A stretch of DNA of 64,000 bases, from positions 103,234-167,233 of the forward strand of contig JBEGVH010000014.1 of NCBI GenBank assembly GCA_041178425.1, read 5' to 3'. Below, in pieces: positions 54,001 to 63,000 of this stretch. The position numbers were made by a program. This DNA is from Pseudomonadota bacterium (GTDB lineage Bacteria; Bdellovibrionota; Bdellovibrionia; Bdellovibrionales; Bdellovibrionaceae). The number at the start of each line of letters is the position of its first letter. Position 1 is the stretch's first letter.

Positions 54001-57000
54001 AGTTAAACGGAATTGGTAACAAAGGGAACGTAAAGGGTCAAAATTTTTCGTAGATTTTTGGGTGGGACATAAAGTTAAAAGGGAAGACAAGGGCCCGTTC
54101 CAACTCTTCATCAGAACGAGGCCCTCAATAAAATTTAAATTAAGCGGCTTTACGACTTCCTTTCCAATAATGACTGTAGTCGGTACCTAAACCCTCATCT
54201 AAAAGATCCATTCTCCCCTCTTTGGAGAGCGTATAATGTTTGTGGTTCTTTATCTTCTTACGACGCTTTTCAAACTGTCTTTCGAGCTTGTCCTGCACCA
54301 GATCAATAGCAGCATACAAATTTTCACAAGTTGCGCTCGCTTTATAGTAGGCCCCTCCAGCTCCTCTTATTGCAATAGCGATCGAAAACTCGTGTCCCCG
54401 CTTTCCAAAACTCACATGAACAGTTCCGTGGCTAAAAAGATAACGCATCGAGTGACCGATCTTATCTTCAACCGCCTGCACTACAAAATCGGAATGGGGA
54501 ATTTGATGAAACGAATATTTAAATTCCATGGACTCTCCTTTGGTCGTACTGACCTATCGGCTAGTCTCCGTTAAAAATTTAGGATCTAAAGGATGGAAAT
54601 TTAAAAAAATCTGACCTTTAAAATTGTTCAAAACTGAAGCGATCAGCGCTCAAAGCCAAATCGTTTCTGTTCCATTTTGAGATGCCTTAAGACACCCTTT
54701 TTGACTGCTTCTCGAAGGCCTTCCGGTATTGGGTTTGCTTCATTTTTACCAGAAGATTTTCCTCTTGGAGTAATTCTGTTAATCGCTCATCTAGTTGTTC
54801 CAAAAGCTGGTCTACAGCGACCTTCGCATGCCCCTCATGAATAACAAAAATTTTATCCAAAATAGATGGTGCGACAAATTGAGACACTGAAAGTCGAACT
54901 CCAGAAATGATTTCTTTAGTCTGCGATAGCATTTCCTTAATTTGCTGACGAACTCTCTTAAGTTCCCAATCCGTCACACTCTCAGAAACTGCTGTTCTGA
55001 GGTACTCGAGGTCGATCGGCTTTTCGAGAAGGTGCAACACGCCCAGTTCCATGGCTGTGATAGCATCCTCTTTATCCAGATAACCCGAGAACATGACGGT
55101 AGGAATCTGATGACCCCATTCATTAAGTTGTCGAAGAACTTCTAAACCCGTTAGTCCGGGCATTTTCAGATCGATCACCAAGACAGCAGGCTTTAACGAA
55201 TCAGCCCTGATCGCATCCAAAAACTGTTTTGGGTGATTAAATTGAATAGTTTCAAAATCAGCCTCTAGATCATCGGCAAGGATTTGAGTGATCTCAGTTT
55301 CGTCATCGACAAGGGCAACCAAGGGTCGCTCTAGATTTTTTGATGGCTTTTGCATGGCTAATCCTTCGTTTTAATTAACTATTTATGGGCATCGAAACTG
55401 AATATTTTTCAGACTTTACCACTCTCTTTCCCCATTTTAATGGCAAGCAAAACATCGGACGAGCTTTAAATTCATGGTTACACTTTGGTCTAGTAAAACC
55501 AGAGAGCTAAATCGACACATCCCCGTCAAACCCACTTGCTTAGCCTCAGATTCAATGCCACTATCCGCTCCGAAAAATCCTTTAAATTCTTTGAGAATAA
55601 GGAAACGACGATGAAAACATTATTAATTAGCATTGGCCTCAGTCTTTTTAGCCTTTTTGCTTTTGGTCAGGATCGTTACACCGAAACACTAAGAAGCTCC
55701 TATACTGGAATCCTTAAAAACTTGAACCACCCTAACATTACTCCAGGGGCTGTGATTGCCTCTCCATCGCAACAAAACCCAAACTATTTTTACCACTGGG
55801 TGCGAGATGCAGGCCTAACCATGATGGAGCTTGTGGAGCTCTACAAACTACCTCTTAGGCCTGAGAGAAAACAAATTTTCGAGCACCATATTAAAAACTG
55901 GATAAGCTTTGAGATGCGCAACCAGCACACAGCGATTGCACGTTCAAATTTAGGGGAGCCTATTTTTACAGTCGGTGGCGATATTTATCCTTTTCCTTGG
56001 GGCCGCCCTCAAAGTGACGGCCCAGCCATCCGTGCCCTTGCTATGATCAATTATGCCGAAGCCCTCATCAGTGAAGGTCGCCTCAGTGAGGTAAACAAGC
56101 TTTATAGAGCTGAACTTCCTACGACATCCCCAATAAAAAGAGACCTAGAGTATATTTCTCATCACTGGCAAGAACAGAGCTTTGACTTATGGGAAGAGGT
56201 TAAAGGACTTCATTTTTTCACCAGAATGGCTCAACGCTCGGCCCTCATCCGAGGGGCTCAGCTCGCTGAAAAACTAAAAGACCCCAAAGCGGCTCACTTT
56301 TACATTATCAATGCTCGCGAGCTCGAAAAACACTTATTGAAGCATCGCAGTGAGGCACGGGGCTACATTGTGCCAACCATTCACCAAACAGATGGATGGC
56401 AGCATAAAAAGTCTGAGATTGATATTTCAGTTCTCCTCGGTGTCATCTACTTTTCCTTGAATGATGGATTCTTTGATCTAAATGATCCTTGGGTGCTTGC
56501 CACTGCAAAAACGATCGAATCAACATTTGCATCACTTTATAAAATTAATCAGTACATTGACCTTGCCCCCGCCATCGGCCGTTACCCAGAAGATGTTTAC
56601 ACAGGGAGTGGCTTTGGTGAGGGAAATCCTTGGTTCTTGGCAACAAATGCCTTCGCCGAATACTATTGCCAACTTTCAAAAACAAATACAGAGGTCAGAG
56701 AATCAAAACAGCTTCGCGATCGCGGGCTATCATTCATGACTCGCACGATTTTTCATTCTGATGCCGGCGGCAGAATGCCCGAACAGTTTAATCGTGATCA
56801 CGGCTTCACTCAGGGGGCAAAAGACCTCACTTGGAGCTACACCAGCTACGTTCGAGCTTACAGAAGATGTGATTCGAACAGTGGGTTCATGGCTGCTGAA
56901 CAAATCGATTTAAACTAGTTAATGTATTCGTAAACGGATTATTAAATCACTCCAAACCCTTACTCACAATTCGTCAATTGTATTGCCCGCTTGACAACCT

Positions 57001-60000: not shown

Positions 60001-63000
60001 GCTCAACTATTCTGATGGATGCCATCAAAGGATTAATTCTTGTTGCGCCCGAAAGCCCAGACCAGGCTCAATTCAAAGAGCAACAGGCACTTTACCTTAA
60101 AGAAAAAGAAGACCTCGAAAAACTTAAATACGCCGAAGCCATCACAAAAGATGGTGTCCGAATCTATTTACATTCGAATATTGGTGGCACGGCTGAAATT
60201 CCTGTGTTGAAAAAATTTAATCCTGATGGAGTAGGACTCTTTCGGACTGAATTTTTATTTTTAGATCGCAAGGCTCCGCCCACAGAGCAAGAACAGTTTG
60301 AGATTTATAAACAAATCTTAGCGACCATGGAAACTCGCAAAACCATTATCCGTACACTTGATATTGGCGGTGACAAAGAGGTTCCTTATTTGCGTATTCC
60401 TAAAGAAGAAAATCCCTTTTTAGGCCTGCGAGGTCTTCGCTATTGCCTAGAAAATCATGAATTATTTCGAACTCAAATCCGCGCCCTGCTAAAAGCGAGC
60501 GTTTATGGTTCGCTTTATGTGATGTATCCGATGGTCACAACTATCGGCGAGATCAAAGCTGCGCAAGAGATCGTTAAAGAAGAGAAACAAAAATTATTGA
60601 ACCAAGGAATCAAGGTCTCTGACACCATCAAATACGGTGTTATGATCGAAGTGCCAGCGGCTGCCATAATGACAGCTGATTTCGCTCCTTATGTAGACTT
60701 TTTTAGCTTGGGCACGAACGATTTAATTCAGTACACTTGCGCTTGCGATCGTCTGAACCCAGTGGTGAAGTCGTTATACAGTTCGTTTGAACCTTCGGTT
60801 TTGCGCCTGATCAATATGGTTTCTGAAGCAGCCCAACGCCATGGTAAAGAGCTGAGCATTTGCGGAGAAATGGGTGGCCAAGCAACAATGACTCCATTTC
60901 TGATTGGAGTTGGTATTTATCATTTGAGTATGTCTTCAACCCTTATTCCTAAGGTCAAAAAACGCATTTTGGGCCTAACTCTCTCTGAATGTCAGCAATT
61001 AGCCAAGTCTGTTCTAAAAGCTAGCACGATACAAGAAGCCCAAGAAATTCTGAAAAAATAAAAGCCTAAACGTATTCGCAGTTCTCGGAGGAGCCCCCAA
61101 GGCCTCCGGAATTCGAGTCCGGAGCGCAGCCGAAGGCGAGCACCGCTTGTTCGCTGAAGTACGGAGGCCTTGGGGGCTATCCTCCGAATACTTCCCTCTC
61201 ACCTACAACTCGCCTAATTCCTGCTCCGGATTTGCAAATATCTTTTTCATGGTTTTAACCATATGACTAGCGTGCATACCATCGATGACTCGGTGATCGA
61301 AGGTTACACAGAGGCTAATCACTTTTTTAACAACCACTTGGCCGTTCTGTACGAGGGCAGCATCGCGGATAGAACCAATGGCAATGAGACACGGAATTCG
61401 AGAGTAAGGTACCAATGGAACAAAGGCTCGCTCTAAACCAATTGAGCCGATACTTGTGATCATAATAGATCCGAAGGGATCTTTTGGAACGCCTAACAGA
61501 GGCGACCAAAGATTCAGTGTGTACATCAAGTAAGACGAGAAGTTTAAGAGATACCGACTCGCCCAAGCAGGAATCATTCGCATGGTTTTTTTCATTTCTT
61601 TGTAGTCGATGTCGCCGGTGTCGCGAATACGCTTTACTTTATTCTGCATATCTTCTGCGATTTCTATGATGTTTTTTTTATCGATGTGCCTGACCGTCGT
61701 TCCAGACAGATCTTCTCCTTTGGTATCTGAGGCGACTTGAAAGAAAATGTCGACATCTTGTCGACGATAGAGTTTGCCCCAACGTAAAATGCAATTGAGT
61801 TCTGGATGACGACGAATCGTTTCGGCACAAGCTTTACCAACAAAATGAGTTATCGTAAGTTTTTTACCAGTTTGCTCACTGATCTTAGCCAGATAGGCAA
61901 GAGCCGCTTCGCATTCAAATTCCATTTCAGAGTAAACGCTGGGGTCACCTGCTGTTTGCCAAGTTCCCAATGCGACTTTTCGAAATGAGCTCAGCTTAAC
62001 TGGCCCCTGATACTTGATATTACGGCTGAGCAAACCCATGTTGCCTCCAAAGTATAATCAGCTCTTGCTAGCCTATCTTTGCTTAACAGACAAAGTTAAA
62101 CTGAATTCAGCCACTTTTTCGCTACCCGTCTTTGCTGGCGTCATCGCATAGGAGTGAAAAGTCATTGATTGTCTTTCCTTGGTGGATCGCGCCTGATGAA
62201 CCATATCGCGAATAGCGAGTCCTTCTTCACAAACAAAAACAACATCAGATTCAGCTCGTTTTAGAAATTGAGCCTTAAAATCTTTAAATAAAAAATCAAT
62301 CTTACCATTTTGGCGAATTTCATCGAGAACATGCAGAGCAATAACGGCTTCTGCTCCCATACAAAGTGCACCAAAATAAACAACATTTAGGTGATTTTTA
62401 GTGCGATACGAAATAGGAATTTGAAGTTGGCTGCGTTCTTCGCTGACCTCTTGTACCTCCGGCCATACGAATGCTAATAGTGGAATTTTTAAAAGCGATC
62501 CAACACGAACTCCCCAATTCAATTGAGTCTTGGCAGGTATTTTTGAAATTATATTTTGCACCATTTGATTTGCCATCTTATGCCTCCACTTTTGGTAAGG
62601 AAGCGATTGCCTCCTGGTATTCTTTAACCATTTTTTCAATTATTTCACGGCAAGGTAGTTCGCTATGGATGAGTCCAACACTCTGGCCTGCACTCCAAAC
62701 GGTTTTCCAGGTTGGTTTCCCAATCGCCTCCTCCAAAGACTTCATACCCAGATAGTGGATAAGAGGAACCACGTACTTCTTGGTGAGCGGATTTTTCTTT
62801 AAGACTTCAAGCGCCCAAGGGAGATCGGCGCCTAGTTTTTCGGTATACGGAGTTCGAATAACTGCAGCGGGAGTTCCAGAAAGACGCGTTGTCATAAAAA
62901 TGTCTTCGGGGGTGGCTTTAATAACCGCGTTCTTATAATCCGCTCCCACCTTTGCCTCCGTAGAGGCGATGAAGCGAGTACCAACACTCACTCCGGCCGC

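Follow-up and report, generated by a model that had tools for sequence, protein, structure and literature searches.

In three published accounts (PMC2405797, PMC8354745, PMC12724312), obligate predatory bacteria are described as respiring amino acids, using few carbohydrates and having lost the phosphotransferase system (PTS). Older work (PMC8354745) holds polysaccharides unlikely to be the main energy source of Bdellovibrio bacteriovorus. One locus of this species (L181) carries LamB, pullulanase, a MalE-F fusion, MalG, MalK, alpha-amylase and a ROK kinase; in genome G010 the maltodextrin ABC gene lies within a LamB-pullulanase-amylase-kinase operon, and this gene is present in 30 of the 44 genomes of the Bdellovibrio genus. 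An earlier note on the DNA studied here had claimed a route from alpha-glucan in a predator. Context supports the route well, but alpha-glucan use is not new to known predators. With an ABC-transport route for alpha-glucan already present in the cultured Bdellovibrio genus, the finding is less surprising than the note suggests. The parts of the unit described below are already known. Their combination, a GH15 glucoamylase in one operon with a PTS, is unreported in the Bdellovibrio and Bdellovibrionota literature searched (main texts, most subscription papers lying outside the search).

Organization of the four-gene unit

The window, i.e. the whole stretch of 64,000 nucleotides that was analyzed, contains an intact set of four same-strand genes coding for a GH15 glucoamylase, an EIICBA, HPr and enzyme I (EI), with all catalytic residues kept (Table 1). 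The operon announced by the earlier note is thus confirmed as four intact plus-strand ORFs. The word "fused" in its title does not hold; its remark that the genes are separate does, since the four ORFs are distinct and uninterrupted, with gaps of 138, 7 and 5 nt. The first gap is at most 25 nt in many relatives, versus 138 nt in the host. Promoter-like sites around this spacer show no excess over chance, and neither does the promoter and terminator scan compared with shuffled sequences (7 vs 9.0 and 5 vs 6.4). The long hairpin following ptsI likely marks the 3' end of the unit, and a divergent response regulator gene is found upstream. A recent foreign island was rejected, because GC content and codon use are genome-like (z within +/-1.2) and all four congeners carry the unit.

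Table 1. Features of the glucoamylase-PTS unit, in window coordinates
Feature	Coordinates	Strand	Remarks
GH15 glucoamylase, fungal/GamA-type, 435 aa	55611..56918	+	PF00723 E 9e-67
138-nt spacer, GH15 to EIICBA	56919..57056	+	weak folding, z -2.7
PTS EIICBA (EIIC-EIIB-EIIA), 670 aa, Glc family, "type A" clade	57057..59069	+	
HPr, 89 aa, His17	59077..59346	+	
Enzyme I (PtsI), 569 aa, His191, Cys504	59352..61061	+	TIGR01417 597.7 bits vs cut-off 341.7
Long hairpin between ptsI and convergent gene	61080..61192	.	-71 kcal/mol, z -5.6

As the earlier note had stated, the GH15 protein has a signal-like N-terminus (MK, hydrophobic core, AFG followed by Q); it is of the fungal type, with intact catalytic residues. 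It consists of the catalytic domain (PF00723) alone, the starch-binding domain being absent. The catalytic glutamates are E195 (DLWEE) and E391 (EQF), which we take to be equivalent to E179 and E400 of A. niger. Both are invariant across 73 GH15 homologues, together with the motifs W-x-R-D, WGRPQ, DLWEE, GRYxxD, EQ and LTW. Among the 45 GH15 of the loci, each of the six motifs is kept in 36-43 proteins, and a crude heuristic calls a signal-like N-terminus in 41. The AlphaFold model (pLDDT 94) shows an (alpha/alpha)6 fold that resembles fungal glucoamylases most (TM 0.84, vs 0.67 to the bacterial 1lf6); the top PDB sequence match is 27xj_A, a 438-aa chain (E 6e-72), followed by fungal enzymes. 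Family, fold and intact residues suggest that the enzyme acts on soluble alpha-1,4-glucans, among them glycogen and maltodextrins, to set glucose free, and its N-terminus points to export through Sec. Turnover of the cell's own glycogen was rejected, because the GH15 carries a signal sequence and no glgC, glgB, glgX, malQ or phosphorylase gene was found.

The components of a PTS are textbook interaction partners, and here the system is complete for sugar transport: EI, HPr, EIIA, EIIB and EIIC all have their phospho-acceptor residues (H191 and C504 of EI, H17 of HPr, C429 of EIIB, H577/H592 of EIIA). PtsI is the sole copy in the genome, the other PEP-utilizing protein being PPDK. HPr has Ser48 in a KSIMS motif; no HPr kinase was found in the host genome, and HPr-kinase catabolite control was set aside.

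The earlier note had called the transporter a glucose EIICBA. The domains and phospho-sites are as described, but the assignment to glucose by family is not upheld: the protein scores below the PtsG cut-offs (TIGR02002 489.6 vs 591.8; PRK11089 433.1 vs 647) as well as below those of NagE (TIGR01998 446.4 vs 553.2; PRK10255 518.2 vs 1010). All ten type A proteins scored fall below the PtsG cut-off, and all ten score higher with TIGR02002 than with TIGR01998. Type A EIICs, carried by 45 of the 401 genomes of the phylum, form a separate clade (100% SH-aLRT) that is mostly of Bdellovibrionota and has a weakly supported sister position to NagE (88%). The closest named relatives outside the phylum are Tissierellia/Clostridia proteins (57-58%), which are nested in the clade in a sample of five Bacillota sequences picked as nearest to the query. 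The EIIC and GH15 trees, both quick or FastTree reconstructions, have sub-clades in common. The type A pocket keeps R203, H211, H212, T298, E299 and F338, and K202, E254 and Y215 are diagnostic. Compared with E. coli PtsG, six of the nine glucose-contact residues are identical, the changes being E202 to K202, N215 to Y215 and K257 to M258. Bacillus-type (Priestia) PtsG has E202, Y215 and the K of "GKFP", whereas type A has K202, Y215 and the E of "SE[FY]P"; the charge pair is thus swapped and not lost. Type A lacks the N202 of NagE-type proteins and has neither the Q17 nor the Q212 seen in E. coli NagE. Type A is therefore an uncharacterized transporter subfamily and not a PtsG orthologue, and gene context points to glucose as its substrate.

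Distribution across Bdellovibrionota

Glucose-family PTS genes are present in 76 of the 401 phylum genomes. Of the 181 other genomes of the family, 49 have EIICBA matches; among the 44 genomes of genus g4 there is one, a 184-aa fragment where a contig ends. This agrees with the earlier counts of 33 of 121 in the family and 0 of 31 in the largest cultured-type genus. A second PTS type, with an EIIA-HPr-EI fusion and EIICB, was considered as NagE-like and rejected, its proteins exceeding the PtsG cut-offs. The 35 type A loci of the family bear out the reported proximity of GH15 and EI: GH15 lies in the fetched stretch at 28 (25 upstream, same strand), EI at 32, and five of the seven loci without GH15 end at a contig end. 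Outside the family, GH15 is found at 8 of 27 type A loci.

GH15 occurs in 136 of the 401 genomes, Peredibacter starrii included; it is carried by 33 of the 45 genomes with type A and by 103 of the 356 without, kin not being independent, and is present in 87 of 325 PTS-free genomes. Its partners are distributed as follows. At L144, L146, L149, L224 and L071 it adjoins true PtsG orthologues (14 of 15 such EIICs pass TIGR02002). At L221 and L222 it accompanies a split EIIBA-HPr-EI unit. At L227 it lies between pgi and a sugar-binding protein, with ABC genes and a ROK kinase, and at L229 beside a sodium symporter and a ROK kinase. Seven of the 35 type A loci in the family include pgi, and two-component genes are recurrent neighbors of some loci. 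PTS-GH15 units are also found in congeners of Pseudobdellovibrio exovorus and in Halobacteriovorax members.

The PTS-GH15 module alternates with the maltodextrin ABC operon across Bdellovibrionota. The PTS and the MalEF fusion gene occur together in 3 of 47 in the family, vs 12.9 expected, and in just one of 38 across the phylum sample; two genomes of genus g15 carry both systems. A putatively exported fungal-type glucoamylase or a maltodextrin ABC module is present in 173 of the 401 sampled genomes (~43%).

Proposed function and rival explanations

The best reading, well supported by context, is that of an interchangeable module leading from alpha-glucan to glucose-6-phosphate. Alpha-glucan harvesting is the probable role of the four-gene unit, both glucan sources considered below being covered by this estimate. 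The route proposed by the earlier note gains support from GH15 standing beside unrelated importers, while its glucose-family label, its source and its surprise are corrected. From the genes, residues, linkage and distribution observed, we infer export, substrate and direction of use as follows. The glucoamylase would leave the cytoplasm via Sec and then probably cross the outer membrane, because no maltoporin was found and a type II secretion system (T2SS; gspD/E/F) is present. It would cut soluble alpha-1,4-glucans to glucose; phosphate would pass from PEP through EI, HPr, EIIA and EIIB, and EIIC would bring glucose in as glucose-6-phosphate. The latter may enter PGI and glycolysis down to pyruvate kinase, or feed wall, LPS and pentose precursors. 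The host genome (G000) has pgi, pfkA, fbaA, tpi, gap, pgk, eno and pyk; no Glk, ROK, GH13, LamB, OprB or phosphorylase was found in it. The PTS seems to be its only dedicated glucose-phosphorylating route, and the BadF-type kinase, part of a BadF kinase-nagA-SIS cluster for GlcNAc, might phosphorylate glucose too.

The source of the glucan is a separate matter. Where the earlier note spoke of "glucan foraging", the surroundings are one candidate source among others, and prey glycogen is an equally good fit or a better one. Prey glycogen would be the likeliest substrate, at close to an even chance; ambient, biofilm or protist glucan is a weaker candidate and rather unlikely. A bolder reading, which we hold somewhat less likely than not, is that harvest of prey glycogen is a widespread and overlooked part of predation by bacteria: the enzyme would be sent into the prey, the store saccharified there and glucose taken up through the lineage-typical, charge-swapped PTS, so that the glycogen content of the prey would determine progeny yield. 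The further hydrolases that had been listed are borne out. Besides another GH15 of the fungal type (C17), the genome has one of the bacterial type that carries Glucodextran_N (C21), as well as one GH30 and two long GH3; by eye, their N-termini look signal-like. GH3 and GH30 were excluded from the module because they are not conserved: GH30 was found in none of four relatives, and the two close PTS-bearing relatives have only one GH3 each.

That type A moves another sugar (maltose or isomaltose, GlcNAc or GlcN from the prey wall, mannose), with a looser link to GH15, is an idea encouraged by its scores below the glucose equivalog cut-offs, its long stem, the NagE sister position, the replacement of N215 and K257 by Y215 and M258, and the 19 of 27 loci outside the family with no GH15 in the fetched stretch. 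We nevertheless think it unlikely: the NagE residues N202, Q17 and Q212 are absent, the pocket charge pair is swapped relative to Bacillus-type PtsG and not lost, a screen of loci with E. coli nagA brought up no nagA-like gene (none in L117-L156), GlcNAc is served by a separate kinase cluster, and glucose is what glucoamylases produce. Still less probable is a PTS acting mainly as a sensor, in which glucose from prey glycogen would dephosphorylate EIIA/HPr and signal prey quality or growth entry. The divergent response regulator, the two-component genes near some loci and the respiration of amino acids by predators (PMC8354745) are in its favor; yet HPr kinase was not found, and pgi is a recurrent neighbor. 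Elsewhere ABC or symporter plus kinase modules take the place of the PTS, and carbon flux is therefore favored over sensing.

The module could also belong to a non-predatory host, a proteolytic saprotroph or protist associate living on alpha- and beta-glucans, as Legionella with GamA. Three GH15, two long GH3 and one GH30 would suit such a life; the ankyrin protein and the 101-aa hit-locus protein of G010 have no homologue in G000, and the PTS is present in none of the single-contig family genomes. The earlier note presumed an obligate predator. Family placement agrees, since proteins bearing the names B. bacteriovorus and P. exovorus come from genomes of the host's GTDB family; predation itself is read from gene content. 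Homologues exist for 15 of 17 chosen non-sugar predation-linked proteins of G010 (one weak). Kept in G000 are the hit-locus RHS protein (55%), Tad and type IVa pili, the TPR-TamB-BamA cluster, and an extra divergent DacB and a full-length 383-aa deacetylase (41%), in addition to flagella and T2SS. The RHS gene is present in 176 of 182 family genomes irrespective of PTS status, and P. exovorus congeners and Halobacteriovorax members have PTS-GH15 units. Searches of G000 with E. coli queries recovered no His, Trp, Leu/Ile/Val or Arg pathway. Because these pathways are missing and most predation-linked genes tested are kept, the host is likely a predator, and we consider a non-predatory host quite improbable. 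Since several amino-acid pathways are missing, sugar would supplement a prey-dependent cell and not free it from prey.

Comparison with described systems

The view that predators lost the PTS is built on B. bacteriovorus, and its genus turns out to be exceptional (glucose-family PTS in 76 and GamA-like glucoamylase in 136 of the 401 genomes). The exchange of modules with the Bdellovibrio maltodextrin operon suggests selection on alpha-glucan capture itself, which offers an explanation for the high, so far puzzling PGI activity of B. bacteriovorus. It hints that these predators consume sugar stores besides protein, with a bearing on prey preference, carbon flow through predation and media for uncultured lineages.

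Like the host unit, the maltodextrin operon of B. bacteriovorus, an obligate predator, has a net path from alpha-glucan to phosphorylated glucose. Its parts are non-homologous: oligomers are taken up via porin and ABC transporter and then meet a kinase, whereas in the host unit the monomer would be made outside the inner membrane and its uptake driven by PEP. The two systems are near mutually exclusive. The EIICBA-HPr-EI order is that of the Bacillus-type ptsG-ptsH-ptsI operon of Priestia, but the host unit has no antiterminator gene or HPr kinase and adds a putatively exported hydrolase. E. coli IICB-Glc contacts R203, H211, H212, T297, E298 and F337 are kept in the host EIIC, which differs from both PtsG types by its separate clade, its scores below the PtsG cut-offs and the K202/E254 swap. 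With the NagE/NagP GlcNAc PTS, type A has in common the EIIC family, the weak sister position and a P-x-M motif in TM6; it lacks N202, scores below TIGR01998 (446 vs 553) and neighbors GH15 and pgi, not nagAB. The (alpha/alpha)6 fold and catalytic motifs of GH15 are those of fungal glucoamylases; unlike them, the enzyme is linked to a PTS here, and its gene occurs in a third of the Bdellovibrionota sampled. Legionella GamA, a T2SS-secreted eukaryote-like glucoamylase, appears likewise to be a fungal-type GH15 with a signal sequence and intact motifs; the host gene, in contrast, is tied to a PTS.

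The four-gene unit, its glucoamylase and their neighbours

The operon of a signal-peptide GH15, glucose EIICBA, HPr and enzyme I described in the earlier note is real, intact and conserved. All its parts fall in known families, the full set of phospho-acceptor residues is kept in the PTS, and GC content and codon use match the rest of the genome (3.06 Mb, 100% complete). The strong, long, GC-rich hairpin behind it (z -5.6) may be a small repeated element; three partial look-alikes occur in the genome, one on contig C30 (78% over 98 nt) and short pieces on C40 and C21. A response regulator divergent from the operon, whose place is taken by a 221-aa ORF in a congener locus (L038), is a possible regulator of it. 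After lepA there are three tandem signal-peptidase-I-like ORFs, the first two with counterparts in locus L178 of G010, a family genome with a maltodextrin operon.

Location of the features discussed (window positions unless a contig or locus is named)
Feature	Location	Orientation and spacing	State
GH15	55611-56918	co-directional with EIICBA, HPr, enzyme I	intact ORF
EIICBA	57057-59069	co-directional, 138 nt after GH15	intact ORF
HPr	59077-59346	co-directional, 7 nt after EIICBA	intact ORF
Enzyme I (ptsI)	59352-61061	co-directional, 5 nt after HPr	intact ORF
Hairpin	61080-61192	3' of ptsI	
Response regulator	54687-55355	(-)	
Signal-peptidase-I-like ORFs	48631-50902	(-)	
Bacterial-type GH15 region	C21:75512-82826 (L209)		
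GlcNAc unit	C39:9822-12831 (L210)		
107-aa ORF	C30:209752-210075 (L216)		
Class II aldolase	C9:211720-212799		
GlgA-like glycosyltransferase	C14:20521-22134		
Genes adjoining the PTS in genus g15	L060:9643-12201; L064:3-1316		

By sequence and fold the window GH15 is a fungal-type enzyme: its top PDB sequence matches are chain 27xj_A and fungal glucoamylases, and its model (pLDDT 94) has a TM of 0.84 to fungal enzymes versus 0.67 to bacterial glucoamylase. Across 73 homologues neither the two catalytic glutamates nor the substrate motifs vary. Since a starch-binding domain is absent, soluble glucans such as glycogen would be favoured over starch granules. A crude heuristic gave a signal-like N-terminus in 41 of the 45 locus GH15s. 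Fungal-type GH15 is present in 136 of the 401 sampled phylum genomes, with a protein named Peredibacter starrii (a cultured predator) among the carriers, and in none of the 30 genomes of the Bdellovibrio genus (g4) in this sample. The genome under study has a bacterial-type GH15 too, a 638-aa protein that joins Glucodextran_N to GH15 and has a signal-like N-terminus. Its gene follows gspD-gspE-gspF in the same orientation at a distance of 116 nt; it may be transcribed together with this T2SS and encode one of its substrates. In genus g104 (L218, L219, L220), GH15 has no transporter beside it; it comes directly after, and in the orientation of, genes for HMG-CoA reductase and GHMP kinases of the mevalonate pathway.

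The window EIICBA belongs to a separate EIIC clade, here called type A. Within the family, GH15 was found in the fetched stretch of 28 of 35 type A loci, upstream and on the same strand in 25, with a gap often within 25 nt; pgi is present in seven. Outside the family it accompanies 8 of 27, mostly after ptsI. GH15 also adjoins true PtsG units (L071, and L144, L146, L149 and L224, whose proteins carry Halobacteriovorax names) and a split EIIBA-HPr-EI unit (L221, L222); at L227 it is part of a pgi-GH15-sugar ABC unit and at L229 it stands beside a sodium symporter, each time together with a ROK kinase. The gene context points to glucose as the product, most strongly through this repeated pairing with unrelated importers in varied orientations. 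Several sub-clades are common to the GH15 and EIIC trees. Two counts speak against a tight link: outside the family GH15 is missing near 19 of 27 type A loci, and of 325 PTS-free genomes 87 carry GH15.

In genera g40 and g41, subtilase (S8) genes stand at the flanks of the GH15-PTS unit (loci L048, L049, L051, L053, L054, L056, L057, L061, L044). A GH35/GH42 beta-galactosidase or GH30 adjoins the PTS unit in g15, so other glycosidases are able to join it. At L069, L070, L132 and L051 (genomes G085, G078, G352, G170) a PTS or GH15 frame is split or frameshifted, through either sequencing error or decay.

Lifestyle and metabolism of the host

Gene content makes predation by the host likely. Homologues of 15 of 17 chosen non-sugar G010 proteins were found in the genome. 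One is the hit-locus RHS protein, encoded by 176 of the 182 family genomes; others are those of the Tad and type IVa pili and of TPR-TamB-BamA, an extra DacB and a 383-aa deacetylase, whose N-terminal cap is termed predator-specific in PMC4876506. The GTDB family includes genomes with proteins named Bdellovibrio bacteriovorus (g4) and Pseudobdellovibrio exovorus (g38). No homologue of the G010 ankyrin or small hit-locus protein was found in the genome; a non-predatory host is nevertheless very improbable. A 107-aa signal-bearing ORF directly follows the hit-locus RHS gene; G010 has a 101-aa protein at this place, with undetectable similarity.

The genome carries pgi, pfkA, fbaA, tpi, gap, pgk, eno and pyk (phosphoglycerate mutase was outside the set checked), GlpX and PPDK. 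Searches for zwf, gnd, edd and eda found nothing in it, nor did those for Glk, ROK, GH13, LamB, OprB, phosphorylase and HPr kinase. GlcNAc has its own unit of BadF-type kinase, nagA and SIS-domain gene, a putative PTS-independent route. E. coli queries found no His, Trp, Leu/Ile/Val or Arg pathways, an absence also reported for the phylum (PMC11988736); glucose alone therefore could not support growth. The class II aldolase on C9 is 73% identical to E. coli FbaA (other glycolytic genes 39-55%), a possible transfer from Gammaproteobacteria. One glycosyltransferase resembles GlgA (33% to the E. coli enzyme); glgC and glgB were not found in the genome.

The maltodextrin module and earlier reports

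A single G010 locus encodes LamB, pullulanase, a MalE-F fusion, MalG, MalK, alpha-amylase and a ROK kinase. With three weak matches left out (G076, G105, G113), 47 of the 182 family genomes carry the fusion, and g4 accounts for 30 of these. Only three of the 47 have a PTS match, one via a fragment, versus 12.9 expected; without g4, two co-occurrences compare with 6.0 expected. Of 38 MalE-F carriers in the phylum sample, one has a PTS, and the same genome has GH15 (compared by eye). Genera g14, g38, g114 and g119 contain genomes with either system and none with both; two g15 genomes carry both. The exclusion is suggestive, kin not being independent. With this module, an alpha-glucan route can no longer be called unprecedented in predators; the broader statement that takes the place of this claim is that 173 of the 401 phylum genomes carry an alpha-glucan hydrolase system, either GH15 or maltodextrin ABC.

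Earlier work described the maltose genes of B. bacteriovorus and its use of periplasmic glucans of the prey, and the single genes of the operon are already annotated in databases. Published work lists B. bacteriovorus without PTS through lifestyle-linked loss (PMC2405797), holds polysaccharides unlikely as its main energy source and its high PGI activity unexplained (PMC8354745), and reports few CAZymes in the phylum (PMC12724312, whose main text contains neither 'PTS' nor 'GH15'). By term search, 'PTS' is absent from the main text of bioRxiv 2020.11.01.364414, PMC11870529, PMC11656739, PMC12827227 and PMC7529429, and 'maltose' from that of PMC3627812 and PMC13689555. The literature searched, whose supplements may list these genes, gave no report of a GH15-PTS operon, nor of the breadth of this gene combination, the type A clade or the swap with the maltodextrin operon.

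Type A EIIC and the predicted route

The window EIIC is not a PtsG orthologue: it falls below the cut-offs of the glucose and GlcNAc families, as do all ten type A proteins tested, although each of the ten scores higher with the glucose IIBC model than with the GlcNAc model. In the name glucose EIICBA, the sugar is a prediction from gene context and not a family assignment. In trees, type A forms a clade of 65 rows (100% SH-aLRT) across Bdellovibrionota families and weakly groups with NagE (88%); the five Tissierellia/Clostridia proteins nested within it were selected for their closeness to the query and so cannot point to a donor. At an identity of at least 58%, type A occurs in 45 of the 401 phylum genomes, and a second EIIC type in a further 31; 14 of 15 second-type proteins tested pass the PtsG cut-off. 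A second PTS layout in Bdellovibrionota consists of an EIIA-HPr-EI fusion, then a PtsG-type EIICB with extended C-terminus (L072-L075, L145, L147, L148, L150-L154, L156; L074 with a second EIIB).

We consider the following route quite probable from sequence: GH15 would be exported and alpha-glucan hydrolysed outside the inner membrane, the freed glucose would be taken up PEP-driven as glucose-6-phosphate, and this would serve glycolysis or as precursor. Prey glycogen as its source falls slightly short of an even chance; ambient, biofilm or protist glucan is somewhat less likely. That EIIC carries another substrate, with the failed cut-offs on one side and the gene context on the other, is improbable, and a mainly sensory PTS is very improbable.

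E. coli IICB has nine glucose contacts, according to PMC11393339; type A keeps six in our alignment and replaces E202 by K (59 of 59 rows), N215 by Y (59 of 59) and K257 by M (58 of 59). Judged by alignment, the type A pocket is probably a glucose site that has been kept. Where a Priestia PtsG has E202, Y215 and the K of 'GKFP', type A shows K202, Y215 and E254, which is invariant in its 'SE[FY]P': the charge pair is swapped between the two, whereas NagE has an uncharged N202.
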